Below are positions 668-42,749 of a DNA stretch of 42,749 nucleotides, one piece after another (position 1 is the stretch's first letter; every line of letters begins with the position of its first letter). Origin of the DNA: a virus. Under the pieces are notes generated by a model. The model saw nothing but the letters and a program-made list of their open reading frames with translations. It was not told the DNA's origin and made no database searches. Position numbers and translations under genes: made by a program. The stretch lies in the IMG/VR virus record IMGVR_UViG_3300012041_000016, positions 1-42,749 of that record; one strand, written 5' to 3'.

Positions 668-1249
668 ATGCCGTTTAAGAACCCGCATCCGCTCTATGGC
701 GTCTGGGCTAGGATGCGAGGCCGCTGTTCCAAGCCGGGTTATCAGCAATGGAAAGACTACGGCGGTCGGGGGATTAAGGTCTGTCCTGAGTGGGAGACTT
801 CATTCGCTCAATTTGTTGCGGACATGGGGCCTCGCCCCGAGGGCTACTCTATTGACCGCATAGACAATGACGGCGATTACACCCCCGCCAATTGTCGCTG
901 GGCTACGCGAAAGACCCAGCAACGAAACAGGCGCGGCGCTATCTACCTAACTATCGAAGGAACCTCTTATTTACTGGCAGAACTCGTGGAGCGTTCGGGG
1001 CACAAGCCGGATACGATCACCAAACGTGCTAAGTTAGGGCTTACTCTCGCTGAAGTTCTGGACCGCAAGAAACGGGTATTTACTGCGGGTCTAGCGTTAG
1101 GCGGGCGGGCCTCAGGGGCAAAGAAACAGGCTCTAAGAAAGTGCAAGAACGGCCATTTCTTTACCGAAGAAAACACCCTCATAACCAAGGAAGGATGGCG
1201 AAACTGTCGCCGTTGCCATGCAGATAGACAAAACCGCCGCCACTCGTAA
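668..1249 (+). CDS. HNH homing endonuclease (free-standing, opposite strand to the late operon)
   Basis: 193 aa. 'YSIDRIDNDGDYTPANCRWATRKTQQRN' is an HNH_3-type motif. C-terminal 'CKNGHFFTEENT...RNCRRCH' is a zinc-ribbon-like module. Strong SD. It lies between an ejection-protein gene and the tail-fibre gene. Confidence 0.85.
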   Translation: MPFKNPHPLYGVWARMRGRCSKPGYQQWKDYGGRGIKVCPEWETSFAQFVADMGPRPEGYSIDRIDNDGDYTPANCRWATRKTQQRNRRGAIYLTIEGTSYLLAELVERSGHKPDTITKRAKLGLTLAEVLDRKKRVFTAGLALGGRASGAKKQALRKCKNGHFFTEENTLITKEGWRNCRRCHADRQNRRHS

Positions 1250-1581: not shown

Positions 1582-3016
1582 CATTTTGCCTCGTTTTTGC
1601 CCTGGAGGCGTATTTTGCAGCGGTGCCGCCGGCAACGAGTGCCGCGCCTAACACGGGCTCACCGCCCGCATAAGATGCCCCGCCCGCTACGGTCGGGAAG
1701 AACATCGACGGGCTACCAAGTCTTGAGAAATCAAGGCCAAACCGGCCTAGACGTTCCAGCCCCCTGCCGCCGTGGGCCACTTCCATAAAGGCTTCGCGCT
1801 CCTCGGCAGAGAGGCCGCGCGCCTTATTAGAACGCAGATAATTAGAAAACTGGTTGCGCAGCCCGCTTTGCTCGCCTGATTGATAAGTTTCCGCCCTTGC
1901 CTGCATGTCCTCGATCTGGCGAGCGAGAATGTTGCGGCGGGCCATTTCGCGAGCTTGCCTGACCATTTGCGGAACATGCGCCGGGTCGATAAGCCCGTTA
2001 GTGTGGGTAATGCCGTTCGTGCCGAAATCATCAAGCGCGTCGATTATCCTCTCGGCTGCCTCTCTATCAGTAGGCGATGCCGCTTGGTTCCGAAAAATGG
2101 CAGATGTCGTCTTACGGATTGAGTCCAAGTCGTTGAAGTCAAGCGTCCCCGCCTGGATTTGCTCGCCTATGGCGTCAAGTGCATCGGCTGAAAGTGGCGC
2201 CTGCGCCCTGCGGAAACCATCCCGAGTCAAATTCTGCATAAGGCCAACGGCCATCTGCTGAAATCCCTGCTGGTCATAGCCGATCCCGGAATTTCGTAAA
2301 TCGTCATACATTGCGTTTGTGGTGTTGCGGACCTGTTCATGCGAAGGTGCATGGCGCGCCGCTTCCCTGCCAACGGTGCCCCCTCGGCCCGCCGCCACCA
2401 TACCGCCCGTCAGTGCAGCGCCAATCTTGGCATATGGTTGGGCTGCCGTTCCTTCGGTTAATTCGCCAGCCGCGAAATGTGCGAGCCCAGGGGCGAGGAC
2501 TTGCGCGGCCTTGCGCACCGGCCCGCCGGGGGCCACGGCGCCTAGCGCCATGCTGGTTACAGACTCAGTGCCCCGCCCTGCCGGCGTGAGCGCCCTCTGG
2601 TCTGGGCCGATAACACCCTTTAGTACTTCATTTATCTCGCCTGACGTGCGCGGACCTATTTGTGGCACGAAGGCGCCAAGGGGGTTGAGGACATTGCTCG
2701 TTATCTGCTTGCCGGTAGACGCAAGATATTCCGAAGTCTCAGGAGATGCGCCCATCCAACCCGCGACTTTACCAACCCCCTGCCCCGCTAATTCCGCCAT
2801 ATCGCCGGGGAGCCCCAACGTGGAGGTCACGACATTCTTGGCCGTCCACGCCGCCGAATTAAGCATGTCTTTCGCCGTGGCACCGCCGGAGAACTCGCCA
2901 ATATCTGACTTGGCCCCAGCATTGACGGGAGAAGGTTCATCAGGGGGCGCGACAAGGCGGAACCGCTTCTGTGGAGCGGTCTGGCCTTCGGGCGGTGTTA
3001 CGAGTTTGAATGCCAT
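1442..3016 (-). CDS. Structural-module protein, putative ejection/internal virion protein (P22 gp16 position)
   Basis: 524-aa ORF, last of three consecutive ORFs following the needle-like gene. Gly/Ala-rich N-terminal half. Function assigned by synteny only. Confidence 0.55.
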   Translation of the reverse strand: MAFKLVTPPEGQTAPQKRFRLVAPPDEPSPVNAGAKSDIGEFSGGATAKDMLNSAAWTAKNVVTSTLGLPGDMAELAGQGVGKVAGWMGASPETSEYLASTGKQITSNVLNPLGAFVPQIGPRTSGEINEVLKGVIGPDQRALTPAGRGTESVTSMALGAVAPGGPVRKAAQVLAPGLAHFAAGELTEGTAAQPYAKIGAALTGGMVAAGRGGTVGREAARHAPSHEQVRNTTNAMYDDLRNSGIGYDQQGFQQMAVGLMQNLTRDGFRRAQAPLSADALDAIGEQIQAGTLDFNDLDSIRKTTSAIFRNQAASPTDREAAERIIDALDDFGTNGITHTNGLIDPAHVPQMVRQAREMARRNILARQIEDMQARAETYQSGEQSGLRNQFSNYLRSNKARGLSAEEREAFMEVAHGGRGLERLGRFGLDFSRLGSPSMFFPTVAGGASYAGGEPVLGAALVAGGTAAKYASRAKTRQNVNRALATALVGREGQQAARHTVADRRRQSLIRALISGQGSLAPLHD

Positions 3017-3017
3017 C

Positions 3018-4061
3018 TCATTGCACCGGGACTAAGGTTCCGTTTTCTTTGCGGTAGAGGGCGCCCGTCTCATCTTCGACAACGGCGCCTTCGGGGATTT
3101 CGCCAACCTCCCCAAATTCTACCGCGCCGTCTTCCGGCATGGCAGCCTGATCGGCGGGCTGTCCCGCAAGAGCCGGGCCTGCCGTGCGTTTCATAGAGTC
3201 AATGGCGATCTGCCGGTTGCGGCGCTTCTGGGCAATAACGTCCGGTCCATCGCCGGGCTGCGGGAAATACTGCTTGTTAGCGTTGTCGAACTCCTCCGCA
3301 GAGATGACGGCGCCGGATTCTTTGCGCAACTGGGCATTGATGAAATCACGCCGCGCCTGGTCGAACTGCTGATAGTCAGGCGAAACGAGTTCATTGCCGA
3401 TAATAGGCACCTTGCCGCCATAGGTATTCATGCGGTCCATGCCCGCTTGTTCAAACTTTTGCAGCGTGCCCTCACTTGCACTCATCCGATCATAGAAGCC
3501 TGCCGCATTGGATTGATCGCCCGTGGGGCGAAGATTGCGCACTGGAACGGGTTTGTTAGGATCGGCAGGACCGCCTGGAATCGCCTCAAGGTTGCCGTCC
3601 ACTGTGGCGCGGAAACCGGATGGCGCGGTCTGTCGGCCGCGGGCTTCTATCTGGGCGGCGCGCCATGCCTCATCCGCATTGAAATCCTTCTCGCGCCACG
3701 CCTCCTCCGATTCCGCCCGCGAATTGCGCCAGTCCATGTCCTCTTGCCGGTATTGTGCATGTCGCCTGTTGCTCGCAAGCGGCAACAGTTCGTGATAGCC
3801 GCTCCCCATCGCCATGGCTTCGATGTCTTCGGGCGTAGCGCCGCCTTGCAGGGCCTCCTGAATCTTGGCGTAGTTCTCGCTTTCCTGATTATTCGCGTTG
3901 CGCATCATGAGCCCGCCGCCAATGCCGGTCAGGGCGCGTGCAATCCCCTCGCCCCAGCCGCCATAGGCAGGACCGCCCTCAGCGACTTGGCCAAGCAAGG
4001 CTTCCGCCATGCGGCGACGGCTTTCGATGGATGACTTGTTGAGAAGACCGCTATAGGCCAT
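3018..4061 (-). CDS. Structural-module protein, putative ejection/internal virion protein (P22 gp20 position)
   Basis: 347-aa ORF, 1 nt from the next gene. N-terminal Gly-rich hydrophobic stretch 'GIARALTGIGGGLMM'. Function assigned by synteny only. Confidence 0.55.
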   Translation of the reverse strand: MAYSGLLNKSSIESRRRMAEALLGQVAEGGPAYGGWGEGIARALTGIGGGLMMRNANNQESENYAKIQEALQGGATPEDIEAMAMGSGYHELLPLASNRRHAQYRQEDMDWRNSRAESEEAWREKDFNADEAWRAAQIEARGRQTAPSGFRATVDGNLEAIPGGPADPNKPVPVRNLRPTGDQSNAAGFYDRMSASEGTLQKFEQAGMDRMNTYGGKVPIIGNELVSPDYQQFDQARRDFINAQLRKESGAVISAEEFDNANKQYFPQPGDGPDVIAQKRRNRQIAIDSMKRTAGPALAGQPADQAAMPEDGAVEFGEVGEIPEGAVVEDETGALYRKENGTLVPVQ

Positions 4062-4073
4062 GGGCTTTGTCCT

Positions 4074-4550
4074 CTACGCCCAGCCGCCGGGAGCGTTGCT
4101 GTTACCGCCGGGGTTCTGGCCCTGTCCGCCTGCCATCTGCGAGCCCATACCGCCGCCTTGGCCCCACTTCTTATTGCCCTGAATCCAGTTGCCGCTTTGA
4201 AGCTGCTGCAAGAATGCGAGCGGGTTGAACTGGGTTGGTCCCGGTATCGGTTGTTGAATTGGGGCGGGCGCGGCTGCTGGTGTGGGCGCCGGGGGCGTAG
4301 CCATTGCCGGAGCGGGTTGTGCAGCGGGCGCGGGCATTGGTGCGGGCGCGGGTTGGGACACTGCGGCCTGTTCTTGCATGGCGGGCCGCCACGCCTCCGG
4401 ACGGGTGCCAAACATGTTCGACAGCGGCGAGCGTGGCCCATGCCCACGAACCATTGTCTCGTGACGGCCCCCCATTGAGCCAGGCCCCTGGCCCCTGCGT
4501 AGGTCCTGGGTCAGCGCGCCGGCAATGCGGCTATATTGTCCGTTCATCAT
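4074..4550 (-). CDS. Low-complexity Pro/Ala/Gly-rich structural-module protein (P22 gp7 position)
   Basis: 158-aa ORF tightly packed between neighbours. 'PAPAPMPAPAAQPAPAMATPPAPTPAAAPAP' and a Gly/Gln-rich C-terminus. Confidence 0.5.
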   Translation of the reverse strand: MMNGQYSRIAGALTQDLRRGQGPGSMGGRHETMVRGHGPRSPLSNMFGTRPEAWRPAMQEQAAVSQPAPAPMPAPAAQPAPAMATPPAPTPAAAPAPIQQPIPGPTQFNPLAFLQQLQSGNWIQGNKKWGQGGGMGSQMAGGQGQNPGGNSNAPGGWA

Positions 4551-4551
4551 A

Positions 4552-6174
4552 TCAAGCTACCTCTCTAGCGAGCCTGCCATAGTCAACCGCCATCAGGCCG
4601 CGACGATTGCGGCTGACAGCCTTGGGATGCTTGTCCTGAATTTCCTGCGCCATGACGCCAATTTGCATCAGGGGCGATCCCTTATAGCGATAGGCATGGA
4701 CAGGGGTTCCGTCATCGAGCTTGCCGACGCGCTTGGCATCGGTTTTCACGCGCCGGTCGGACATGATTGCCGCACCGCCTATCGTGCCAGCCGCCGAGCC
4801 TATGCCGCCAATAAGGGCATTCTGTCTCTGTTGATCGAGCGCCTGCTGGTTCTGCATGATGCCCGCCGCATCGACCGGCGCAACATTCACCTGCGGTGTG
4901 TTCACGGTGCCAATCGGGGCAACCTGCCCCATCGTGGTCGCGGCTTGCGCTTCCTGGATAGCCTGCTGGCGTGTCGCAAGCTGTTCCTGCACCTGGCGCG
5001 CCCGATCCTGGGCCGCCGCATCGTTGTTCTGCTGTGCCTGCTGGAGGGCTGCCGCGTTCTCCTGCTGCTGACGCTGGAGATCCAATTGCGCCTGCTGGAG
5101 CTGGGCTTGGTTCATCTGCGAAACTTGCGAATTGGCCGCATTTGCCTGCGCTAGTTTCGCTTCGTTCGCCAACTGCGCCTGCTGGTTGGTTGCCGCCGTC
5201 TGCGCCAGCTTGGCCTCGTTCGACATTTGCAACTGCTGATTTTTCGCAGCCGATTCCGTCTGCTTGGCTTGGTTCACAAGCTGAAGCTGCTCGTTGCTGA
5301 GCCGGGCTTCCGCTTCCTTGCCCTGGTTGATGAGCTGTAACTGTTCGTTGGTGATGCCAGCCTGCAAGAGCTTGGCTTGGTTCTGCTGCGAAAGCTGGCT
5401 TGAGTTGAATTGGTTCTGCGACAGACCGGCGGCAAACTGGTCCTTGGAAATCCCCGCCGCCGTCTGCAAGCCCTGCATCATCAACTGGGTGTAGGCGTCG
5501 TTCTTTTGCTGGGCGAATTGTGTCTTGGCGCGGTTATAAGCCTCCATGCCGGGCCGAATGCCCTGATTGGCAAGCTGCTGCTCTAACGCCGCTTCTTCCT
5601 GCTGGAAGCGCGGGTCAAGCCGCTCCCGGCCAAGGTCATAAATGATGTCTTGGCCCTGCTGGGTGAAATCGGTATTGAGGCCGGAGGCGTCGAAATTGGT
5701 CCCTAGCTCGGCGCCCTGATAGCCGGTGTTCATCTGGGCGGACTTGAAGTCGGTTCCCATCGTCGGCGCCGTGTAGCCGGTTGTATTAAGCTGAGCCGCA
5801 CCGAATTTTGAGTCCAGCATGGGCGCCACATAGCCCGTGCCGAGGTTTGTCTTTCCCGCAGCCGTGGTCTGGAGGCTCACCTTCTCCGAGGTCGGCCCCG
5901 TGCCAAGGTTCATCGGGGTTGCGAGCGTGCCTTGCGCATTGGTGAGCGTGGAGCCTGCAAGCCCGGTCTTCTGGTCCTGAATAGCCTGAAGCTCGGGGGT
6001 GAGCTTTTGCTCCACCGTATACATCGGATTTCCGGCTGCCGATGTCCCGGTCTGCGTGTAGGTCGTGGTTCCGCCAGGGCCAACCTGGTTGACCATGTTC
6101 ATTTCGGCTTGCGTCGTGGCGGTCTCTTTGTTCGCCGCCGTCTGTGCCGCTATTTTCCCGAGGCCCTTGCCCAT
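4552..6174 (-). CDS. Gln-rich coiled-coil fibre (tail needle/plug position) with C-terminal peptidase S74 intramolecular-chaperone domain
   Basis: 540 aa. Long repeats of the type NEQLQLINQ/NEAKLAQ. C-terminal 69 aa 'SDRRVKTDAKRVGKLDDGTPVHAYRYKG...GVMAQEIQDKHPKAV...VDYGRL' match the SDxRxK autocleavage signature of endosialidase-type chaperone domains. Confidence 0.7.
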   Translation of the reverse strand: MGKGLGKIAAQTAANKETATTQAEMNMVNQVGPGGTTTYTQTGTSAAGNPMYTVEQKLTPELQAIQDQKTGLAGSTLTNAQGTLATPMNLGTGPTSEKVSLQTTAAGKTNLGTGYVAPMLDSKFGAAQLNTTGYTAPTMGTDFKSAQMNTGYQGAELGTNFDASGLNTDFTQQGQDIIYDLGRERLDPRFQQEEAALEQQLANQGIRPGMEAYNRAKTQFAQQKNDAYTQLMMQGLQTAAGISKDQFAAGLSQNQFNSSQLSQQNQAKLLQAGITNEQLQLINQGKEAEARLSNEQLQLVNQAKQTESAAKNQQLQMSNEAKLAQTAATNQQAQLANEAKLAQANAANSQVSQMNQAQLQQAQLDLQRQQQENAAALQQAQQNNDAAAQDRARQVQEQLATRQQAIQEAQAATTMGQVAPIGTVNTPQVNVAPVDAAGIMQNQQALDQQRQNALIGGIGSAAGTIGGAAIMSDRRVKTDAKRVGKLDDGTPVHAYRYKGSPLMQIGVMAQEIQDKHPKAVSRNRRGLMAVDYGRLAREVA

Positions 6175-6177
6175 GGC

Positions 6178-7734
6178 TTACCCTATTGGATTGCCGACGT
6201 TGTAAATGAGATTAAAGCCGATCAATCTGAACTCAAGATCGGACGTTTCCGACGTAGTAACGGTCACTGCATAATGCAGCGCGATAGCGGTCCCGATATT
6301 GGTGCCGGAACGCCATTGCTTTGAAACAGTGGTGCCGGCCCAGTTCGCCTCATCCCAGTTGGACACGTCCCAAGTAAAGCCGGATATTTCAACGCTCTCC
6401 GATTGGTTCGGGTCCGTGGTCGGGTCCACATAATCGGCGGCAATCTGTACGCCACCATTGACCGTCGCATTGGACCGGATGATCGGCTGGATAAGTTCGA
6501 TCTTCTTCTGTCGGCCCGGCGCGCCGAGCTGGGAATATGAGGTCAGGAGTTCGGCCTGGATCGCCGCGCCATTGTCGCTTGAGCCGGTCTCGGCCTCATA
6601 AACACCGTCCACACCGCCGAAATACAGACTGTCATTGAACACCGCCCAGCACAGCGCATTGATGCCGGTCCATAACCCCCATGCGTTTGACAGGAGGTTC
6701 ATGATATACTGGCGGGATTCGAGCCCTTCTTCCTCCGGCACGTTAACAATCATGATGTTGGTTTCGGGGAACGAAACCATTTGCCAGCCGTCATTACCGC
6801 CATAGGCGAAAGCAGCGTCGGCAAATTCACGCCGTATAGGCGCCGTGATGGCCGCCGCCTCTAACACCGCCTTATCGAGGCTGATCGCCTTGGATAGCGG
6901 AATGATACCCGTCTTGGTGAGTATCATCAGATCGCCGCCAACATTGAACAGGCACCGCCTGCCAATCGGACGGCCAATGTAGTAGAGCCCCTTTAGGGCC
7001 AGTGTCGAAACGGTGTCCGGGTCGGTCATCTCATAGACCGCGACTTCGCCTTCCGACGTAATGAACACGTTCAGATCGTCAATCCCCTCGCCCGAGTCAT
7101 AGGACATCGAGCCGGCAGCCATGAGCTGGCCGCCGCGCTTGAATAACGTGCCAAGCGGAAATTCCGTAGCCGAGCCCGCCACGCTGTCAACTGGCAGATA
7201 CCAGGCCGACATGCTGTCGAGTTCGATGAACCATTGCCGGGTTTTGAATGCCCAGCCGAATACAAGATCGAAGCTGTCTATTCCCGATATGACGGGCTCG
7301 GTCCACGATGTGCCGTCATAGTTCAGGACCGGGTTGTCGCCATTGCAGGCAACGAGGTAGCGCGTCCCGGCAGCGGTCGTGAAATTGAAATGCGAAAACT
7401 GTGCGTTGCCGACGTCGGAAACCTCAGCACCGCCCAATCCGCCCGCTACGGTTACGTCGTAAATCCCCGTCCCGATTGCCGCGAACAGTGCGGAATCGCC
7501 CGCCGCATTATAGGGCATCAGCGTTTCAACAAGGCTTGAGCCCGTCACATGATCGGTATAGCCGCGCCGCAATCGCACCGCGTCCGTTTCCGGCACCCAA
7601 TTGGTGAGCAGCATAGCAACGCCCGGCTGTTCGGCGGTCAGGCCCTTGTCGGAACGCAGGCCACGGATAGGCGCCGGGACAACCTGTTGTGTTGCCGTCT
7701 GGCGGGCGGGTCGCTGTAAGGCTTGGCGGTACAC
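6178..7734 (-). CDS. Putative tail hub/nozzle protein (P22 gp10 / T7 gp12 position)
   Basis: 518-aa ORF directly after the adaptor-like gene. Function assigned by size and synteny only. Confidence 0.5.
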   Translation of the reverse strand: MYRQALQRPARQTATQQVVPAPIRGLRSDKGLTAEQPGVAMLLTNWVPETDAVRLRRGYTDHVTGSSLVETLMPYNAAGDSALFAAIGTGIYDVTVAGGLGGAEVSDVGNAQFSHFNFTTAAGTRYLVACNGDNPVLNYDGTSWTEPVISGIDSFDLVFGWAFKTRQWFIELDSMSAWYLPVDSVAGSATEFPLGTLFKRGGQLMAAGSMSYDSGEGIDDLNVFITSEGEVAVYEMTDPDTVSTLALKGLYYIGRPIGRRCLFNVGGDLMILTKTGIIPLSKAISLDKAVLEAAAITAPIRREFADAAFAYGGNDGWQMVSFPETNIMIVNVPEEEGLESRQYIMNLLSNAWGLWTGINALCWAVFNDSLYFGGVDGVYEAETGSSDNGAAIQAELLTSYSQLGAPGRQKKIELIQPIIRSNATVNGGVQIAADYVDPTTDPNQSESVEISGFTWDVSNWDEANWAGTTVSKQWRSGTNIGTAIALHYAVTVTTSETSDLEFRLIGFNLIYNVGNPIG

Positions 7735-8443: not shown

Positions 8444-9099
8444 GCGGCCTCGGCGTCCTCTAGCTTAGGTGGGCGGCCACGCCCGCGCTTGGGCTCTGAA
8501 TCCGCAGGGGGAGCAGTCTGCGAAAGCAAAGCCTCCATCTGCGCTCTGAGCGTGGCCAACTCTTCGCCCTGCTTGGCTATCGTGTCGTCCTGCACCTTGG
8601 CACGGGCTGCGGCGACGTTCTTGTCGCCGGCCTCGATGAACCGCTGGGCTTGCTTCTGCAATTCGCGGACGCGCGGGGCCTGTATCTTGTCTCGGGCGCT
8701 ATCAGGAAGCGTTGCAAATTCCTCGATAGTATAGATGCCCTGTTTCTTGATGGCGTCGCGGTCTTCCTCGCGCAGAAAGGTCGCAATACTGAGCGGCGTG
8801 CCTTCCAGCGGCATTTCTTCCGCCTTCTGCCAAGCCCGGTAGCGTTCCATGATATAGGCGCGCTTGAGCCGCGCCTGCTGCACGGTCGGATTGTCGTCGG
8901 CGCCATTCACAACGCGGTCGATGTGGCTGATCTTCTCAGGCACGACGAGCGAATTGGCCTGTCCTTTCGGACACCACATGACCCAATCTTCCATTTCAGG
9001 AAGGCCGGTCTTGGGATTCACATAGGCTACGTCGGATTCAACCTCGCGCGCCTTGGTGTAGAATTTGAGGACGGTGATACTCAGTTCATTGGCAGGCAT
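8440..9099 (-). CDS. Structural-module protein with C-terminal coiled coil and AT-hook-like motif
   Basis: 219 aa. C-terminus '...SEPKRGRGRPPKLEDAEAA' contains a GRP-core AT-hook. Confidence 0.5.
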   Translation of the reverse strand: MPANELSITVLKFYTKAREVESDVAYVNPKTGLPEMEDWVMWCPKGQANSLVVPEKISHIDRVVNGADDNPTVQQARLKRAYIMERYRAWQKAEEMPLEGTPLSIATFLREEDRDAIKKQGIYTIEEFATLPDSARDKIQAPRVRELQKQAQRFIEAGDKNVAAARAKVQDDTIAKQGEELATLRAQMEALLSQTAPPADSEPKRGRGRPPKLEDAEAA

Positions 9100-19965: not shown

Positions 19966-20208
19966 CTAGATCGGGTTGCCCCACTTGGGTTTGAACGGCC
20001 AAAACGGGTCTTCCCGCATATTGCGCGGCCAGATTCGGCAGACGGTCTTTGCGCTGTAGACGTGAAGCGTAGGCCATGGCCTTACACCTACCCATGCAAT
20101 CTCATAGCCGCCGCTGTGTGGGCGCCAGACGTGCGGGATGAGCGAAACCAGCCAACACCCGAAAGGCGTTGCCCAGCGAATGCGCCGGAAATACCAGCCA
20201 ATGCTCAT
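19966..20208 (-). CDS. Small Trp-rich hypothetical protein
   Basis: 80 aa. The ATG overlaps the TerL stop (ATGA) and its stop abuts the next start. Confidence 0.4.
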   Translation of the reverse strand: MSIGWYFRRIRWATPFGCWLVSLIPHVWRPHSGGYEIAWVGVRPWPTLHVYSAKTVCRIWPRNMREDPFWPFKPKWGNPI

Positions 20209-21680
20209 GCATTCGCCTTGCGCTTCTTGCTCAATTGCTCAACCCTCTCTCTAACGCTCATGTTACCGACGATCCGGCCATCGGCCCTCGCCTCGTAAAT
20301 CAGATCGGTCGGCTTTTTGCCTTTCTTGACGCTCCCGATATAGGGCCGCGACATGCAGGCATAACGAGCTTCATCCGCCACGTGGTCTTCAGCGTCCGTG
20401 TCTAAGTCTTCGGGTTTGTCAGGGTCGTGCTGTAGGACCGGCACGGTGCGGATGAAGTCCTTGCAAGTGTCGAATATGAACAGGGCCGGATATTCCCCGT
20501 CGCCGGCGAGCCTAGCCCGCATTTGATCCCAGCCGCCCATGGCACCACCGCGTTGGACGCGCGCATTGTCGGCCCTGCGGAATATCACGCCCTCTTTGAG
20601 CATCCGCTCGGCAATGGAAGGTCCGCCGTCAGATGTGAACGCAGCCGGGTCTAGAACGCCGTAGGAGACCTTCTCGTCCTTTTCCTTGGCTTTGATGCCT
20701 TGGGCGATTTGCTCGGCTGTAGCCCTTATTCCTTCGTTGGGCGTGCCGGTGCAACCGTACCACTCACGATAGCGGACAAGAGCCCCTCGTGGAATGAGAC
20801 GGCCATCTTCGAATATGTCGTCCTGAGCGACGGCCCACCAGCCCACGCTGAAAGGCTTAGCGAATCCCCAGTCCATTGAGCGGAACCGTAGCCACTGGTC
20901 CGGAATTGCGAAAGGCCGCATGACGTGGCGGGCGTGGGACCATCCATCGAAGAAAGCTCCTTCAACAACATCCCAGTCTCCCTCCAGCCATGCACGAACG
21001 AGTTCCGCACTGCCGACCATTTGAAGGTTAGCGACGTACTCAGCTCCCAAGTATCGGTTATCGGTGAGGCGGGATGGGATGTAGACGCGCTCACGATTTA
21101 TGACTTCACCAGTGAAAGGGTTTGTGAAGGGTTCAGAGAGTACTTGCCACCCGGCTGGGCAGGGGTCGATGTACCGGGATTTAACGTGATTGTGACCTGG
21201 ACCTCCTGGGTTCCCGGTTGCACGGAAGCCGACAGGTACGCCTGCTCCGGACCGCAGAGTAGCCATGAGCTTGGCGATTGGAGCTCGGGAGGGGAAAGTT
21301 CCAATCTCCTCAACATAAACTCGACTGTAGCTGTGTCCTTGGTAGGCGTCGGCATCGGCGTCCCTGTCCAGATATGCGAAGCGCAGGCGTGCCCCATTGG
21401 GCATCCTCCACATCTTGTCCTGCTCGTGGTACTTGGCCCCTAGGAGCGTGTAGATGTTGCGGCTGCGCTCGATGGTTTCGAGGAGCTGCGTGCGGTCCCT
21501 GCGGACCATGAGGCCGATTGCATCCTGGCCGTATTGAGCGGCATGGGATACCCAGTCGCCCAACATGCCGTCAGTCTTGCCGCCGCCTCGGGCGCCGCCG
21601 AAGAAAACCTCAAATATCGGACACTGGATTAGTGCGGTTTGTGGGCCGGGCTGGGGCTCCCAGACGATGTTTTCGGTCAT
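20205..21680 (-). CDS. terL: Terminase large subunit
   Basis: 491 aa. Walker A 'FFGGARGGGKTDG', Walker B-like 'RVYVEEIG', C-terminal nuclease-like region. Confidence 0.9.
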   Translation of the reverse strand: MTENIVWEPQPGPQTALIQCPIFEVFFGGARGGGKTDGMLGDWVSHAAQYGQDAIGLMVRRDRTQLLETIERSRNIYTLLGAKYHEQDKMWRMPNGARLRFAYLDRDADADAYQGHSYSRVYVEEIGTFPSRAPIAKLMATLRSGAGVPVGFRATGNPGGPGHNHVKSRYIDPCPAGWQVLSEPFTNPFTGEVINRERVYIPSRLTDNRYLGAEYVANLQMVGSAELVRAWLEGDWDVVEGAFFDGWSHARHVMRPFAIPDQWLRFRSMDWGFAKPFSVGWWAVAQDDIFEDGRLIPRGALVRYREWYGCTGTPNEGIRATAEQIAQGIKAKEKDEKVSYGVLDPAAFTSDGGPSIAERMLKEGVIFRRADNARVQRGGAMGGWDQMRARLAGDGEYPALFIFDTCKDFIRTVPVLQHDPDKPEDLDTDAEDHVADEARYACMSRPYIGSVKKGKKPTDLIYEARADGRIVGNMSVRERVEQLSKKRKANA

Positions 21681-21748
21681 TCTGCGTGTTTATTGGCATC
21701 CGAGCGGCTACTATTGCAAAATAGTTTGCGCTTTCGTGTCGATTGTTG

Positions 21749-21777
21749 TTGACAGCCTGCCCAGATGTTGGCATATT
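21749..21777 (+). promoter_or_regulatory. Near-consensus sigma70-like promoter (TTGACA-N17-CATATT) driving the plus-strand two-gene module
   Basis: TTGACA at 21749-21754, CATATT at 21772-21777. It is bracketed by the 11-bp inverted repeat TTGTTGTTGAC (21743-21753) / GTCATCAACAA (21781-21791). AGGGAG SD at 21791. Confidence 0.6.
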
Positions 21778-21803
21778 AAGGTCATCAACAAGGGAGAACG
21801 CAG

Positions 21804-21974
21804 ATGACCAAGACAACCTCAGCCAACGAACTCAAGTGCGACATCCTGGCGAGCAAGTGGCTTGGCAACGCGAACGAAGCCGAGGAAAAGGGCGAATATG
21901 CCAAGGCCGAGCGGATGTACCAGAAGGCCCAGTATTGGCTGGACCGTTACAACAAGGCGGCGGGCAATCGATGA
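21804..21974 (+). CDS. Small helical protein (56 aa), unknown function
   Basis: Below the ORF-track size cut-off. ATG at 21804 after AGGGAG. 'MTKTTSANELKCDILASKWLGNANEAEEKGEYAKAERMYQKAQYWLDRYNKAAGNR'. The stop overlaps the next ATG (ATGA at 21971-21974). Confidence 0.6.
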   Translation: MTKTTSANELKCDILASKWLGNANEAEEKGEYAKAERMYQKAQYWLDRYNKAAGNR

Positions 21975-22159
21975 CCCCCGCATCCTTAATCGCATGGCGT
22001 GATCGCCTTCATCTTAACCGGGTGGAGGCGGCTGCCGCTTTAGGCATCAGCCGCGAAACGCTGCGTTTCTACGAGGCCGGCAAGCACCCTATACCGCGCT
22101 ATATCGCGCTGGCTTGCGCCGCTGTAGCCCTAGGAATCGAGCCGCACGGGCAGCTTTAG
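21971..22159 (+). CDS. XRE/Cro-type helix-turn-helix protein (62 aa)
   Basis: 'MTPASLIAWRDRLHLNRVEAAAALGISRETLRFYEAGKHPIPRYIALACAAVAL'. Start taken at the coupled internal ATG, not the ORF-track 21743, which would span the promoter. Confidence 0.7.
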   Translation: MTPASLIAWRDRLHLNRVEAAAALGISRETLRFYEAGKHPIPRYIALACAAVALGIEPHGQL

Positions 22160-22420
22160 CTCGTACTTAGCCCGCCATGAATCAGATTGCAGGGGCTCCG
22201 GCGTGCGGACGACGTAATTGTGGATGGTCTGCTCGACGGTCGAGGCGCTTAGATCGGGGAGCACTTTGCGTAAAAGTGCAATGGCTGCCGTGACTTGCGT
22301 GGCGGACATCTCTCGCGATCCGCCGACGTGCTCGATTAAGCAACTAAGAATGTTACTGTTTTGAATTTTAACCCGATGGTCGTCTGACATGACGAAACCG
22401 GGCTTGCGGCCTCTGCTCAT
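22130..22420 (-). CDS. Putative terminase small subunit / DNA-binding protein (first gene of the late transcript)
   Basis: 96 aa. 'MSRGRKPGF...MSATQVTAAIALLRKVLPDLSA' resembles small-terminase N-termini of some podoviruses. Position is upstream of terL but separated from it by the plus-strand module. Confidence 0.45.
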   Translation of the reverse strand: MSRGRKPGFVMSDDHRVKIQNSNILSCLIEHVGGSREMSATQVTAAIALLRKVLPDLSASTVEQTIHNYVVRTPEPLQSDSWRAKYELKLPVRLDS

Positions 22421-22540
22421 TTTATGATTTCCGGCAATAGTCGGCCTTGCCCTGCGTCAAGCGCCTGGGGTGCAGGCCCGTGGTCGGCCCTATTGTTGTT
22501 ATTGGGCTCCAGCAGGATCAGCCATATGCAACCAGGGCAC

Positions 22541-22570
22541 ATTATGGGGTTGTCTCGGATGATTTGTCAA
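22541..22570 (-). promoter_or_regulatory. Putative late promoter (TTGACA-N18-CATAAT on the minus strand)
   Basis: The reverse complement of 22541..22570 reads TTGACAaatcatccgagacaacccCATAAT. It lies in the 240-nt gap between the NusG-like gene and the TerS-like gene and predicts a leader of about 110 nt. Confidence 0.55.
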
Positions 22571-22660
22571 TAGGTGGTGTTGGGAAGCCAATGCGGCCCA
22601 CAATGAGCTTAATTTCGGTCACCCCATGCGGAAGGGTAAAAGTGAGTCCCTGAGAATATT

Positions 22661-23143
22661 TCATGCCGCCTCCTTCTGCCTGAATAGCTCGTATAAAGCC
22701 TCAATCTTGCCCTGTGCCCGTACAATCCTGACCCTGCGCTCGGCGTAAGGCCCGCTTACGATTTCCGCCGTCTCGCCTTGGCCACGGCTGCGCTTGGCCT
22801 TTGCTGTTCTCACGAACGGAATCGGGCGCTGATGAAACAGGGTCGCTATCGTGTGCATGTCCCTGTGTGTGAATCGGGTTGGCCCCTGCCCGTCAATGGA
22901 AACGAAACCTTGGATAAACCGGAAGTCGTTTAGCCGGCCCATGTTCTCGCCAGGGTTGAGCCCAACAAAAATATGGCCGGGGAATGCTGGCCTTGCGAGC
23001 AGCAGGCGGCGTTTTGCGTGCCGCCGGTTGGCATAGCGCAGGCCGTGTTCTATCGGGATGAATACGGTAAAACCCTCCACCTTGAGTATCTGCTCGGCAA
23101 AAAATTCCCGCTGGCGAGTGACTTTGAGAGCATACCAGATCAC
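22661..23143 (-). CDS. NusG/RfaH-family transcription antitermination factor
   Basis: 160 aa, GTG start. NGN-like 'IWYALKVTRQREFFAEQILKVEGFTVFIP...RPAFPGHIFVGL...IQGFVSIDGQGP'. KOW-like 'GETAEIVSGPYAERRVRIVRAQGKIEALYELF'. Confidence 0.8.
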   Translation of the reverse strand: MIWYALKVTRQREFFAEQILKVEGFTVFIPIEHGLRYANRRHAKRRLLLARPAFPGHIFVGLNPGENMGRLNDFRFIQGFVSIDGQGPTRFTHRDMHTIATLFHQRPIPFVRTAKAKRSRGQGETAEIVSGPYAERRVRIVRAQGKIEALYELFRQKEAA

Positions 23144-26883: not shown

Positions 26884-27090
26884 TCATGCGACGCCCTCGC
26901 GATATGAGAGGATGTCGCCGTGGGTAATTCCGGTTACTTCCTTGATACGGATCATCGAGTGATAAGAAGGCCATCGCTCGCCCGCTTCCCATCGCGAAAC
27001 TGCGGCACAACTAACACCGAGTTGGTCGGCCAGATCGGTCTTGCTGATCTGCCTACTCTCTCGGAAAGCCGTCAGTGGGTGAGTTTGCAT
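26884..27090 (-). CDS. Cro-like XRE-family HTH regulator (first gene of the replication/late-direction operon)
   Basis: 68 aa from ATG 27090. 'MQTHPLTAFRESRQISKTDLADQLGVSCAAVSRWEAGERWPS'. No SD, and the promoter -10 ends 7 nt upstream, so the transcript may be leaderless. Confidence 0.7.
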   Translation of the reverse strand: MQTHPLTAFRESRQISKTDLADQLGVSCAAVSRWEAGERWPSYHSMIRIKEVTGITHGDILSYREGVA

Positions 27091-27097
27091 GAATACC

Positions 27098-27126
27098 TTG
27101 TTACCAACACGGCAACAGGCCGTCAA
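27098..27126 (-). promoter_or_regulatory. Putative PR-like promoter (TTGACG-N17-TAACAA, minus strand)
   Basis: The reverse complement reads gggcTTGACGgcctgttgccgtgttggTAACAAggtattcATG. Operator 27100-27116 occupies the spacer and -10. Confidence 0.55.
27100..27116. promoter_or_regulatory. Operator (GTTACC-N5-GGCAAC)
   Basis: One of four copies of the imperfect palindrome GTTRCC-N5-GGYAAC. Confidence 0.6.
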
Positions 27127-27134
27127 GCCCTTTT

Positions 27135-27152
27135 GTTACCAATCCGGTCAAC
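27135..27152. promoter_or_regulatory. Operator (GTTACC-N5-GGTCAAC, one extra base)
   Basis: Starts 35 bp from the 27100 copy. Related sequence gttaccaatccggtcaac. Confidence 0.5.
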
Positions 27153-27160
27153 GACTCAAG

Positions 27161-27505
27161 ATGCTGGGGTTCCTACACTCCGGCATGGTCACCAAGATCG
27201 GCGGAAAGCGCAGGCAACACCTCTACATCACGCAATGGCGCGAGGGTAAGGGCTTGTCTGTTGAGAAGGTCGCGGACCGGGTTGGCGTCAGTCGGGAATC
27301 AGTATGGCGCTGGGAAAATCAGCAACACCGGCTTAATCCAGGCAAAATCAAAGCGTTAGCCGACGCGATCGGCTGCAATCCCGAGGATTTCTGGCGACTA
27401 CCAGCGCGCCCTAGCCTTGATGCCATGGTCAAGGACCTGGACGACGACACCTACGAGCTAACTGTCGATCTTGTCCGACGCGCCGCTCGGAAAAAAGCGG
27501 TCTAA
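27161..27505 (+). CDS. CI-like XRE-family HTH repressor candidate (no peptidase S24 domain)
   Basis: '...QWREGKGLSVEKVADRVGVSRESVWRWENQQHRLNPGKIKALADAIGCNPEDFW' plus a helical tail of about 45 aa. The start is ambiguous: in-frame ATGs at 27089, 27161 and 27185, none with an SD. The 27185 start sits 6 nt after a TACACT -10-like hexamer, so that transcript may be leaderless. Confidence 0.65.
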   Translation: MLGFLHSGMVTKIGGKRRQHLYITQWREGKGLSVEKVADRVGVSRESVWRWENQQHRLNPGKIKALADAIGCNPEDFWRLPARPSLDAMVKDLDDDTYELTVDLVRRAARKKAV

Positions 27506-28687: not shown

Positions 28688-29385
28688 AAACCTCAGAGAA
28701 CATCAACGAGCTTGCGGGCGCCCTTGCCAAGGCCCGCGCTGAAATCAAAAACCCCGTCAAGAACAAGACAGTCAGGGTCACACCGCGTGAGGGTAAGGCG
28801 TATTCATACTCCTACGCTGAATTGCCATCGGTGCTAGATGCCATCACCGGACCGCTGGCCAATAATGGGCTGGTTATTGTTGAAACCATTTCCCGCGAGG
28901 AAAATCACTTAATACTGCACACCCGTCTTGTTCATTCGTCGGGCCAGTGGATTGAGGGCGCTTATCCCATTTTCTGCGACATGACCAAGCCGCAAGTGAT
29001 CGGCGGGGCGCTGACATATGCGCGGCGGTATGCAACATCAGCCATCATCAATATTGCCAGCGACGAAGACGACGACGCCAGCACAACGCACGGCGAAGAT
29101 TATAGCATCGCCCCAAAGAATGGCAACGGACAGAAACCGTTCCCGAACGGGAACCCGGATGTCAAATACACCAAGACGACAGCCACCACGCCCCGGGCTG
29201 CGATGGCGACCGATAACAACGCCTTCTATGTGAAGCTCCAGAAGGAGATTGACGAACTCAAGACGAAGGATGAGGGCCGCGCGTGGAAGGCCATGCGGGA
29301 ACTCGACCTGCAAGAGCGCGTCTCGCCAGAGGCCATGCTGCACCTCTCTGAGCGCTATGAGACACAGATGGCGGCGCTACCATGA
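28684..29385 (+). CDS. erf: ERF-family single-strand annealing protein
   Basis: 233 aa. 'YSYSYAELPSVLDAITGPLANNGLVI...LVHSSGQWIEG...IGGALTYARRYATSAIINIASDEDDD' matches the ERF pattern. Confidence 0.8.
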   Translation: MKTSENINELAGALAKARAEIKNPVKNKTVRVTPREGKAYSYSYAELPSVLDAITGPLANNGLVIVETISREENHLILHTRLVHSSGQWIEGAYPIFCDMTKPQVIGGALTYARRYATSAIINIASDEDDDASTTHGEDYSIAPKNGNGQKPFPNGNPDVKYTKTTATTPRAAMATDNNAFYVKLQKEIDELKTKDEGRAWKAMRELDLQERVSPEAMLHLSERYETQMAALP

Positions 29386-33493: not shown

Positions 33494-34069
33494 CTACTTC
33501 CTCCTAAACAAAGATGCGATCAGATCGAGGATGGCTTTCAGAATGCCCCTGGGAGCCGCAGGCGCGGGCGCTGGGGGCTGTTCTATGTCGGGGGGTACTG
33601 GAGGTGGGGGGATTGGCGAAGAGCCACCAGAACGCCGGAAAAGGGCCTCCTCATCGGCGCGGCGGTTGACCAGCCCTTGCAGCACCTTGCCGCCAGCCTT
33701 GCGCCAGGAGGAGAAGGCATTGGCGGCGCCCTCCATGTCCCCGACGTTGAACAGCTTGACGAGGGTTGATTTGGCAAAGTTGCCCGGCCCGATATTGAAG
33801 CACAAAGAGGTCATGGCATCGAACTGGTTCTGGGTTGCCGGGCGGGTGATGGCATTGGCCACGGCGGTTTCGTATTTGACCAGGTCGCGGATGAGAATGT
33901 CCTCGGCTTCCTGCCGGGTGATTTTCATGCCGGGGACAGGCTTGGGCGGGCCTGCCATGGCGGTATGGCCGAAACCGATGGTCCAGACGCCAACCGCGTC
34001 CGCATAGGCATCGAGCCTGACGCCTTCCCATTTCTTTATGAGGTCGATTCCGGTTCGGCTAGTTTTCAT
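33494..34069 (-). CDS. GH24 lysozyme-type endolysin with Pro-rich linker and C-terminal amphipathic helix
   Basis: 191 aa. 'LIKKWEGVRLDAYADAVGVWTIGFGHT' carries the catalytic Glu/Asp/Thr pattern of T4-lysozyme-like muramidases. The C-terminus is 'PIPPPPVPPDIEQPPAPAPAAPRGILKAILDLIASLFRRK'. Confidence 0.85.
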   Translation of the reverse strand: MKTSRTGIDLIKKWEGVRLDAYADAVGVWTIGFGHTAMAGPPKPVPGMKITRQEAEDILIRDLVKYETAVANAITRPATQNQFDAMTSLCFNIGPGNFAKSTLVKLFNVGDMEGAANAFSSWRKAGGKVLQGLVNRRADEEALFRRSGGSSPIPPPPVPPDIEQPPAPAPAAPRGILKAILDLIASLFRRK

Positions 34070-41302: not shown

Positions 41303-42223
41303 TCACTCGTATGCTGAGTAGATCAGGACAACGAGGCCATCTTGGCCGTCCGCATCGGAGGCCCCGCCATTGCCCTTGCCGGCGACATAATCGCTGTCAC
41401 CTGAATTGGCGACGGTAGACCCGGAGCCCGCCGTAAAGGTCGTGCTGGTTACGCCCCCGGCTGCATAGCTGGCGCCACCACCACCGCCGCCGCCGGAAGC
41501 CGAACCCGTAGCACCAGCTTCGCCGCCGCCACCGCCATGATAACCGGCGCCACCGCCACCGCCATCGCCAGACGCGGAGCCGCCCGCACCGCCGATGCTT
41601 ATTACATCAATGCCCCCGCCCGGACCGCCATTGATAGTGCCGCCGCCGTCGCCGCCATGATAGGTGCCATCTGTGTCACCTGCCTCACCGTCACCGCCTG
41701 CGCCGCCGCTGCCGCCCGCGCCTGCGGCTGATGTCGTGCCGCCCGAGCCGAAGTCACCGCCGCCTGTACCAGACCCGGCAACGCCGTCCTGCGCTGCGCT
41801 TCCGTTGCCGCCCGGCCCGCCAGCACCGCCCGCGCCATTGGTATCGCCCGAACCGCCGCCACCGCCACCGCCCGCCATAACCAGCGGGGTTGAACCATTG
41901 AACACACCGCTATAGGCACCACCACCGCCACCGCCGGAACCGCCCGCCGTATAGCCGCGCCCGCCCGGTCGAATAGAGAGCGAGGCAATGCCGGTTAGAT
42001 CAATCGTGCCCTGCGCAAAGGCACCACCACCACCGGCGCCGCCCGCGTTGGTATTTGGATCACCGCCGCCGCCGCCCGCTGCCCAGCATTTTACGATGAC
42101 GGAAGTTGCGCCGTCTGGCACAGTCCATGTGGATGAGACGCCGAGCGACGTACCTTCATAGGTGTCCACTTGTGCGACCAGGGTTCGCACAACCCTGGGC
42201 GCCATGATGCCGGGTAGCGGCAT
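41303..42223 (-). CDS. Glycine-rich domain fibre-like protein
   Basis: 306 aa. 'STWTVPDGATSVIVKCWAAGGGGG', then long Gly-rich tracts, ending 'GQDGLVVLIYSAYE'. This is the pattern of phage glycine-rich-domain proteins. Confidence 0.65.
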   Translation of the reverse strand: MPLPGIMAPRVVRTLVAQVDTYEGTSLGVSSTWTVPDGATSVIVKCWAAGGGGGDPNTNAGGAGGGGAFAQGTIDLTGIASLSIRPGGRGYTAGGSGGGGGGAYSGVFNGSTPLVMAGGGGGGGSGDTNGAGGAGGPGGNGSAAQDGVAGSGTGGGDFGSGGTTSAAGAGGSGGAGGDGEAGDTDGTYHGGDGGGTINGGPGGGIDVISIGGAGGSASGDGGGGGAGYHGGGGGEAGATGSASGGGGGGGASYAAGGVTSTTFTAGSGSTVANSGDSDYVAGKGNGGASDADGQDGLVVLIYSAYE

Positions 42224-42749
42224 CAGGCAATGGCCTTCAGAATGCCGGTGATAACCACGCGCGTTGATGATATGATATAATAAAATAGCAAATCCTGCGC
42301 ACCGATAGCCGTCGAAAGCACCGGAGCCGTACCGCCGGCAAATTCATAATCAGAGGCATATGCCAAGGTCCGAGAGCCAGTACCGTCCTGCACAACGCGA
42401 ATCACGCCGGATTGCCCGGCCTTCTCGTTTGTGCCGTTGCCCAGCGTGCGATTGCCGCCAAGGGTTACGGTGAAATTGATGCCTAGTGACCAGTCAACCG
42501 CAATCGTCGCGCCGTCGCTCAAGGCTACTTCGGCAGCCGCCGTCCAGACTTCAGCCGGGGAGAGGGCAAGATTTGCGGTTGCAGTATTATTGCGGAACTC
42601 CGCCGCCGTGGCCATTTCGACAACGCCGGTTGCCGAGGTCGTGGCGTCCTGCTTGAGGTTGCCGAACGCGGTTGCCGCGGTAGACGCCCCCGTGCCGCCG
42701 TCAGCAATGGCAAGATCAGTACCGCCCGAGGTGGCAAGTTTGCCATTCA
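42223..42749 (-). CDS. Tail fibre protein, C-terminal part (same gene as 1..598; 42627..42749 duplicates 1..123)
   Basis: The frame of ORF 42223..42615 stays open upstream to the window end and is continuous with the 598..1 frame. '...ATGVVEMATAAEFRNNTATANLALSPAEVW' is a common fibre motif. Confidence 0.85.
   Translation of the reverse strand, partial: NGKLATSGGTDLAIADGGTGASTAATAFGNLKQDATTSATGVVEMATAAEFRNNTATANLALSPAEVWTAAAEVALSDGATIAVDWSLGINFTVTLGGNRTLGNGTNEKAGQSGVIRVVQDGTGSRTLAYASDYEFAGGTAPVLSTAIGAQDLLFYYIISSTRVVITGILKAIA
42627..42749. repeat. Terminal direct repeat identical to 1..123 (circular-contig overlap)
   Basis: Exact 123-nt identity with the window start. Confidence 0.95.

Follow-up and report, generated by a model that had tools for sequence, protein, structure and literature searches.

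Which gene controls the late operon of a phage that has no recognisable Q protein? This question is raised by a temperate phage with a lambdoid layout, IMG/VR record IMGVR_UViG_3300012041_000016. The whole record (positions 1 to 42,749) was analysed and is called the window below. No Q-like protein is found among its scanned early-right genes with Pfam and PHROG. A gene for a NusG-like protein (22661..23143, minus strand) exists upstream of a promoter that faces the late genes. The reading that we favour, with slightly better than even confidence, is that this specialised NusG paralog regulates elongation or antitermination in the late operon. The paralog, the promoter and a promoter-proximal element would make up a cassette at the place of Q-PR'-qut. 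Comparison of related loci is what suggests this late-switch role.

Specialised NusG paralogs are known from cells and plasmids, where they serve polysaccharide, toxin, conjugation and antibiotic operons. The NGN domain is the RNA-polymerase-binding module of NusG and RfaH. The specialised paralogs RfaH, LoaP, UpxY, and TaA act as antiterminators dedicated to long operons of horizontal origin; several such paralogs are encoded beside their targets (PMC7593976, PMC7819879). A passing remark mentions rfaH-like genes on prophages (Wang et al. 2020, PMC7593976), and phage NusG homologues are already labelled as such in PHROG 6386 and GenBank. The literature searched, including the phi3LM21 paper, contains no analysis or test of phage NusG homologues as late regulators, and a late-switch role of specialised NusG paralogs in temperate phages is undescribed there.

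A NusG paralog with a short KOW domain

The gene and the two domains of its product are as follows.

22661..23143, minus strand: gene for a specialised NusG paralog of the short-KOW form, 160 amino acids, GTG start
22847..23140, minus strand: NGN domain, residues 2-99 (Pfam PF02357)
22664..22777, minus strand: truncated KOW-like C-terminal domain, residues 123-160, without beta4 and beta5

By sequence, the NGN domain places the protein in the NusG/Spt5 superfamily, and this assignment is solid. Pfam PF02357 is matched at E 2.5e-9 (38 bits against a cut-off of 22.2) and PHROG 6386, 'transcription antiterminator', at 2.7e-15. The family profile matches PDB chains of NusG at 1e-14 to 1e-11 and of RfaH at 4e-13 to 4e-9. 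These matches confirm the original prediction, made from the DNA letters alone, that the open reading frame (ORF) encodes a NusG-type protein with an NGN domain. The core motifs of NGN (W-Y...FPG-x-hydrophobic-F-V) are kept intact. The AlphaFold2 model has a mean predicted local distance difference test score (pLDDT) of 87.9, mostly above 90 in the NGN region. Its top Foldseek matches are NusG and RfaH; for RfaH (8pen_P) the template modelling score (TM) is 0.81 with a root-mean-square deviation of 2.1 Å over NGN.

The clear KOW signature that had also been claimed is found in part. A KOW-like remnant exists and the family profile matches isolated KOW domains (1nz9, 2.6e-5), but Pfam KOW (PF00467) stays below threshold (E 0.082). 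The domain is modelled as beta strands and not as an alpha-hairpin, with only three strands (E124-128, E137-143, and E146-152) in place of five. The tail past the GP[YF] motif has 30 residues, compared with 41-42 in most relatives, which end in ..ELFGxxxxVEIPLxxLEAA, the sequence of beta4 and beta5. The protein is a complete NGN domain followed by a KOW domain that, in the model, is reduced to three strands.

An exhaustive search for relatives gave 260 matches at E <= 1e-3, reduced to 151 representatives. The KOW tail is short in 22 of the 151 and long in 90, and a relative with 86% identity (P0002) has the identical tail. The truncation thus characterises a clade and is not a lesion. When a long-form relative (P0029) is modelled, five strands and a flexible linker are obtained with a predicted TM score (pTM) of 0.59. 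For the window protein, the linker is ordered in the model and the pTM reaches 0.78; this difference between the models hints at a docked, possibly autoinhibited C-terminal domain.

We take H20, R23, and Q24 (E. coli RfaH numbering) to be among the residues with which RfaH reads DNA. K10 and R73 of RfaH also read DNA, and E48 takes part in autoinhibition (PMC7593976). The window residues aligned to these DNA-reading and E48 positions are T9, I19, V22, E23, and R51, and the RfaH pattern is not kept. At the equivalents of RfaH R23 and Q24, 11 of 15 short-form relatives are net acidic, whereas the long forms are mostly basic.

A promoter and a conserved promoter-proximal block

The non-coding features between the NusG-like gene and the first late gene are listed here; all are on the minus strand.

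22541..22570, minus strand: sigma-70-type late promoter TTGACA-N18-CATAAT, 11 of 12 consensus matches
22553..22578, minus strand: conserved block of the -35 element and spacer, ACCACCTATTGACAAATCATCCGAGA
22502..22549, minus strand: conserved block of the -10 element and about 40 initially transcribed nucleotides, GTGCCCTGGTTGCATATGGCTGATCCTGCTGGAGCCCAA, a candidate loading site
22421..22534, minus strand: predicted leader at the 5' end of the late transcript, about 113 nt long and reaching to the ATG at 22420, with the start placed from the position of the -10 element
22449..22477, minus strand: leader hairpin GCCUGC...GCAGGGC, two compensatory pairs relative to locus L083

The promoter lies about 90 nt past the stop codon of the NusG-like gene and is the best site within 19.5-28.5 kb. 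By chance, 0.24 sites with 11 or more of the 12 matches would be expected per window, and about 0.0007 for this gap and strand. The promoter is real and non-random, as the original prediction had it at 22570-22541, and the leader of about 110 nt given there agrees with the length obtained here. A second site with 11 of 12 matches (TTGCCA-16-TATAAT, extended TG) exists in the window at 29099-29126 on the minus strand, within the ERF recombinase gene in antisense orientation, and may be due to chance.

Alignment with related phages finds conserved non-coding sequence in two short-form loci. The NusG-like protein of L083 is 40% identical to that of the window. Its gene is followed by an ORF coupled to it by an ATGA overlap of stop and start, then by the promoter TTGACG-N18-CATATT (5286-5315) and by GCGCCC-GGTTGCATCAGGCCGAT-CTGCCGGAGCCAAA. 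In the block 22502..22549, 38 of 48 positions are identical between the window and L083, with the shared pattern GGTTGCAT..GGC.GAT.CTGC.GGAGCC. The Smith-Waterman score is 42, compared with 18.9 +/- 2.4 for shuffled sequences, and none of 500 shuffles scores as high. In the other locus, L030, whose protein is 34% identical, the conserved part is the -35 and spacer block (22 of 26 positions; score 32 against 18.2 +/- 2.4, again 0 of 500 shuffles as high). Since this non-coding sequence is better conserved than the adjacent protein, it indicates a functional promoter and promoter-proximal element tied to this clade. IMG/VR pattern scans for the conserved initially transcribed region found only L083 and one chance match in a tail-fibre gene.

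The conserved initially transcribed region forms no stable RNA hairpin; recognition of 22502-22540, if it occurs, therefore seems more likely to be as DNA. The leader as a whole has no stable RNA structure (fold z = -0.07 against shuffled sequences). A small hairpin, GGCAA-N9-TTGCC, had been pointed out in the leader at 22441-22459. It is present, at 22451..22433, but that z value gives the leader no more structure than shuffled sequence. The compensatory pairs of the hairpin GCCUGC...GCAGGGC come from two sequences only and are a weak hint.

Another short block lies in the leader, 20-45 nt upstream of the first late gene. It is about 19 nt long (GACGCrGGGsAAGGCCGA, window 22441-22459, minus strand) and is common to the window and L082 (about 4965-4985), with a more diverged form, CAAGCGGGTGAAGGGCTGA, in Bradyrhizobium phage ppBeUSDA76-2 (L071, about 6965-6985). 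These two phages carry the block without a NusG-like gene. It may be a translation, pac or regulatory signal of the packaging module.

Conserved position before the terminase genes

The early-right operon of the window (minus strand) encodes a RusA-like protein, a DNA methyltransferase, a DnaA-C-like helix-turn-helix (HTH) protein, and a replication initiator, and then the NusG-like protein. The late genes follow on the same strand, and they encode the protein in the position of the small terminase subunit (TerS), the large terminase subunit (TerL), the portal, virion proteins, an amidase, a tail-fibre-like protein, and an endolysin. They span 22.4 to 0.25 kb and, across the junction of the window, 42.6 to 32.7 kb, so that about 32 kb are co-oriented; the earlier statement that everything downstream on this strand is co-oriented is borne out.

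22130..22420, minus strand: first late gene, 96-amino-acid protein in the TerS position
20205..21680, minus strand: TerL gene
33494..34069, minus strand: endolysin gene, near the distal end of the late region

In 22 phage loci a NusG-like gene and terminase share a strand, with the NusG-like gene 0.2-3.6 kb upstream. These are L002, L068, L069, L075-L080, L085, L086, L088, L089, L091-L093, L095, L099, L100, and those of Sinorhizobium phage phi3LM21 and Bradyrhizobium phage ppBjS10J-1. L091 and L092 look like one phage, which leaves 21 distinct phages. The comparison covers phage-type relatives on contigs long enough to judge, and all of them precede terminase. L002 is a Hyphomicrobiales prophage and L075-L079 are IMG/VR contigs, while phi3LM21 and ppBjS10J-1 are cultured temperate rhizobial phages. 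In phi3LM21 the gene (p27) is already annotated as 'transcription antitermination protein NusG'. The packaging modules differ among the loci (for example, a P22-type portal in L068 and HK97-type genes in L069). The placement that lambda gives to Q, as proposed for this gene in the original prediction, thus recurs before terminase in 22 loci.

Some of these loci have recognisable signals past the gene. In phi3LM21 two terminator-like hairpins exist between the gene and TerS (L103 5695-5714 and 6625-6640). In ppBjS10J-1 a hairpin of -25.8 kcal/mol (z = -4.8) is followed by the T-run ACUUUUAUUU. In L085 the last codons of an RfaH-like gene contain the exact 12-nucleotide ops sequence GGCGGTAGCGTG (8498-8509), just before TerS and TerL, and L086 has ops with one mismatch at the same place. 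Some phages therefore do have an RfaH-like protein and ops at the position of Q. Exact ops is also found on the coding strand at most 70 nt past the stop of RfaH-like genes in L072 (8582; a cellular locus) and in two Magnetospirillum fulvum genomes (L011, 7996; L016, 8548). In the 1.08 Mb of DNA fetched, exact ops occurs five times, four of them in L085, L072, L011, and L016. ops seems to be conserved beyond enterobacteria, in cis right past the regulator gene.

Phages with a homologous TerS-like gene (ppBeUSDA76-2 and L082) carry unrelated genes at the slot of the NusG-like gene, which indicates cassette behaviour as in lambdoid late regulators. The slot gene of ppBeUSDA76-2 (L071 6145-6678) has a near-threshold match to DUF6456 (25.9 bits, cut-off 26.3). 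In L082 the slot holds a 137-amino-acid protein without a family, and the phage also encodes a GcrA-like regulator (4336-4749 and 2552-3058 for the two genes). These genes are candidate alternative late regulators.

A further non-coding stretch is shared directly past the NusG-like stop by L077 (1613-1700), L078 (2355-2440), and L079 (1809-1900). It reads ..TAATGGTGG..CTTTT..GTGTTGCGTTC.., and L077 and L079 also share the hairpin AAGGGCAATGCGCCCTT. The stretch is a possible leader element of another clade.

How the late operon would be read, and other explanations

The NusG-like protein is made from the early-right operon, past the replication genes. In the reading we favour, its NGN domain would bind the beta' clamp helices of host polymerase that is starting at the late promoter or pausing just past it, and the element at 22502-22540, probably read as DNA, would mark the loading site. 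NGN would then stay bound and displace host NusG, with less pausing and less NusG-stimulated Rho termination as the result. The polymerase could thus run through the whole late operon, including two stretches that lie antisense to inserted genes and so are not translated (21681-22129, about 450 nt, and about 628-1441, about 800 nt). Unlike the KOW of NusG and RfaH, the truncated one probably cannot dock S10 or Rho; it is more likely a lid or regulatory appendage on NGN.

Several results weigh against this reading. No intrinsic terminator is found on the minus strand from the promoter to TerL, and none that is convincing in the late region, where terminator counts are at chance level. A near-consensus promoter without a downstream terminator would be constitutive, unlike lambda PR'-tR', so other control must be assumed, by Rho, a repressor or interference from the convergent insert. 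No rut-like bias of C over G is found in the untranslated antisense stretches. A recruitment site in the leader had been proposed, and the blocks conserved with L083 and L030 fit such a site, but the leader has no match to E. coli ops (GGCGGTAGnnTG), as the same proposal had conceded. Allowing two mismatches at most, the whole window has 49 ops matches, within the chance expectation of 44 +/- 6.5. No motif common to the divergent loci is found, and none of the other nine loci tested has a promoter of at least 10 of 12 matches after the NusG-like gene; late transcription in those nine may run on from upstream. The conserved block has two comparators and could be ordinary promoter, 5' untranslated or mosaic-junction sequence, and the truncated KOW could reflect a partial loss of function.

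An apparent AGCCGCCT motif in ten divergent loci proved to be coding sequence for the C-terminal ..EAA* or ..KAA*, and was gone once the coding tail was excluded.

The absence of ops, of a terminator and of a structured leader in the window is also what would be expected of a general anti-Rho or anti-silencing factor. Such a protein would bind all elongating polymerase independently of any site and outcompete NusG, and the late promoter would be an ordinary one under other control. V22 and E23 in place of R23 and Q24 of RfaH, and the net acidic charge of most short forms there, argue against DNA reading of the RfaH type; R51 occupies the autoinhibition position E48, and the tested relatives have no recognisable promoter past the gene. 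We nevertheless think this explanation unlikely. The -10 and initially transcribed region is conserved beside a gene that has diverged to 40% identity, and this suggests a cis element linked to the gene. For a global factor, immediate-early expression would be more natural than a strict place before packaging genes in 22 loci, and the higher pTM of the window model hints at a docked, possibly autoinhibited C-terminal domain. The late genes may instead be switched by another factor, such as an activator or repressor at the -35, spacer and -10 sequences, the product of the small ORF past the gene or the Xre-type protein of the convergent insert, with the NusG-like protein accessory or decaying. 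A conserved spacer is typical of an operator overlapping a promoter, phages with the same TerS-like module manage without a NusG-like gene, and the KOW domain is truncated. This we regard as quite unlikely, since the short form is found in 22 of 151 representatives and is not a one-off lesion, the tail is unchanged in the 86% relative, the protein has intact NGN motifs and a confident model, and the synteny is widely conserved.

It is very improbable that the paralog is directed at the host, reprogramming operons such as polysaccharide loci as lysogenic conversion or takeover. Some distant relatives (E about 1e-10; P0159, P0163, and P0165) do head cellular glycosyltransferase or methyltransferase clusters. 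However, the window gene is inside a lytic early operon and is not a moron with its own promoter, its phage-type relatives all precede terminase, and no ops-like host signal is identified.

The favoured reading, that the NusG-like protein is a cassette-borne regulator of the late operon, can be extended to a bolder one, in which short-KOW phage NusG paralogs are a distinct class of late regulators that converged on the strategy of Q. An NGN protein without the ribosome- or Rho-docking half of the KOW barrel would be loaded at a cognate DNA element in the first approximately 40 transcribed bases of a constitutive promoter, and would ride about 32 kb. The three-strand remnant and the ordered linker would form a non-metamorphic autoinhibitory lid. 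Protein and promoter-proximal site would co-evolve as an exchangeable cassette. That all these parts hold jointly is doubtful, and the extension is offered tentatively.

Comparison with known systems

By sequence score, the window protein fails the curated models of RfaH, UpxY, LoaP, and NusG. It resembles RfaH as a two-domain NusG paralog with the same NGN fold (TM 0.81) and with a long, horizontally mobile operon as its presumed target, and by analogy it would be expected to exclude NusG and thereby block Rho. However, it reaches only 28.3 bits with TIGR01955 (cut-off 144.5), and NF006534 is unreported at E up to 1. Its leader lacks ops, V22/E23 and R51 replace R23/Q24 and E48, and its C-terminal domain is modelled as beta strands without beta4 and beta5 and with no alpha-hairpin. 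Its gene adjoins the presumed target, whereas RfaH acts in trans. The RfaH group includes plasmid PrfaH/ActX. Some phage relatives (L085 and L086) score best to the RfaH model; in them R23, Q24, and R73 are kept, and ops is present, with one mismatch in L086.

UpxY (Bacteroides), LoaP (Bacillus), and TaA (Myxococcus) are similar in that the gene is directly upstream of its presumed long target operon with the signal in the 5' leader. UpxY is the best curated-model match of the window protein (7e-13), but the score is 48.9 bits against a cut-off of 100 for NF033644; for LoaP (NF033641) it is 18.4 bits against 125. The window differs from all three in having a phage late operon as the presumed target, instead of a polysaccharide or polyketide cluster, and in its truncated KOW. 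As for housekeeping NusG, TIGR00922 is not among the matches, and the gene is in a phage early operon and not in the secE-nusG-rplK context.

With lambda Q and PR'-qut-tR' (also Q21/BrrG, GafZ, and AlpA) the locus shares a last early-right regulator before a strong promoter facing the late genes, a conserved promoter-proximal sequence, and cassette-like exchange among related phages. The protein has no sequence or fold relation to Q, however, and of the traits that define Q-type antiterminators the genomic position alone is shared; no sigma-dependent pause motif and no tR'-like terminator are found in the window. BrrG of the Bartonella gene transfer agent is Q21-like according to a preprint, not NusG-like, and is thus no precedent.

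PHROG 6386 and the homologues in phi3LM21 (p27) and ppBjS10J-1 belong to the same family and occupy the same slot between replication genes and terminase. The ppBjS10J-1 protein differs in its full five-strand KOW (by sequence), and both phages differ in the terminator-like hairpins downstream. A tblastn search with the window protein finds none of these homologues even at E = 1. DNA and tblastn searches of the cultured phages with the window give nothing at that threshold, and single-protein IMG/VR scans give nothing.

Neighbouring genes

The gene was predicted to be the last of the early-right operon, followed by a 240-nt non-coding gap. Its late position in the operon is correct, but gene callers predict a 40-codon ORF that overlaps its stop codon and spans half of the gap, promoter included.

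22542..22664, minus strand: 40-codon ORF, ATG overlapping the NusG-like stop (ATGA), 3' end holding the promoter; coding status uncertain

No homologue of its product is found in the fetched loci; its C-terminal ..PPIDKSS.. resembles ..PPLAKSS.. in L030. ATGA-coupled small ORFs after the NusG-like gene are found in the window (40 amino acids), L083 (4904-5221, 104 amino acids), L104 (5522-5716, 64 amino acids), and the P0002 contig (74 amino acids). The four products have no detectable mutual similarity and may be coupled partner proteins or a coincidence.

The first late gene had been called TerS-like. Its protein matches no terminase family in Pfam and PHROG scans, and the ORF is absent from JGI gene calls, but 22130..22420 is clearly a real gene in the TerS position. 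Its protein belongs to a family of 968 members, a homologue directly precedes TerL in ppBeUSDA76-2 and L082, and the DNA differences from the Bradyrhizobium phage are mostly at third codon positions.

Two opposite-strand insertions, each with its own promoter, had been described in the late region. Both inserts exist, and the one at 21.8-22.16 kb has a promoter-like site.

21804..22159, plus strand: convergent two-gene insert, 56-amino-acid protein (21804-21974) and 62-amino-acid Xre-type HTH protein (21971-22159)
21749..21777, plus strand: promoter-like site of this insert, TTGACA-17-CATATT with extended TG
668..1249, plus strand: HNH endonuclease gene, homing-type, inside the late region (PHROG 3377, 1.2e-47)

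No promoter-like site was found for the HNH endonuclease gene, and the promoter claimed for the 0.6-1.25 kb insert is not upheld. L082 and ppBeUSDA76-2 lack the convergent insert, and their TerS-like and TerL genes overlap directly. The TerS-like protein of the window has a divergent C-terminus from about residue 63 on, and its gene shares 30 nt with the HTH gene. The 56-amino-acid protein is helical; the two-gene module might serve as a toxin-antitoxin pair, in immunity or in regulation.

The phage and its host

The window represents a phage genome closed into a circle, of which 42,626 bp are unique; its G+C content is about 57%. Bases 1-123 are identical to 42627-42749; reading across the junction is legitimate because the ends are this exact 123-nt terminal direct repeat. 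JGI contig Ga0137426_1000033 (sample 3300011435) is a rotated reverse complement of the window and breaks inside TerL (window 20680). The repressor gene faces the leftward operon of integrase and ERF recombinase.

27089-27505, plus strand: CI-like repressor gene

The TerS-like protein is 100% identical on four contigs of 20-50 kb from other datasets. One of these, L081 (42,656 bp, Logan SRR6448247), has the same gene order and an identical leader. The TerS-position protein has 75% identity (residues 3-62) to its counterpart in a Bradyrhizobium elkanii phage, and genome-derived relatives of the NusG-like protein are alphaproteobacterial in nearly all cases. The host is therefore probably a soil alphaproteobacterium.

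G+C rises to 0.665 at 41.4-42.1 kb, with a strongly negative GC skew. The region 41303-42223 (minus strand) has many degenerate GGC/GGT-rich direct repeats (families D1, D3, D4, and D7), which suggests a glycine-rich repeat protein beside the tail-fibre-like gene.

Significance

The general idea agrees with the known roles of specialised NusG paralogs. New here are a clade with a short KOW, a promoter-proximal block cognate to it, and a cassette resembling that of Q. With phi3LM21 and ppBjS10J-1 in culture, the question can be tested directly. If the proposed role is true, the short forms would be natural minimal variants (NGN plus three strands) for probing what purpose KOW serves, and pairs of protein and promoter-proximal element would be orthogonal tools for the expression of long operons in Alphaproteobacteria. 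These NusG paralogs would also be a third mechanistic class of phage late antiterminators, beside Q- and N-type proteins and put-type RNAs, and the class would appear to be widespread in alphaproteobacterial phages, including those of agriculturally important rhizobia.

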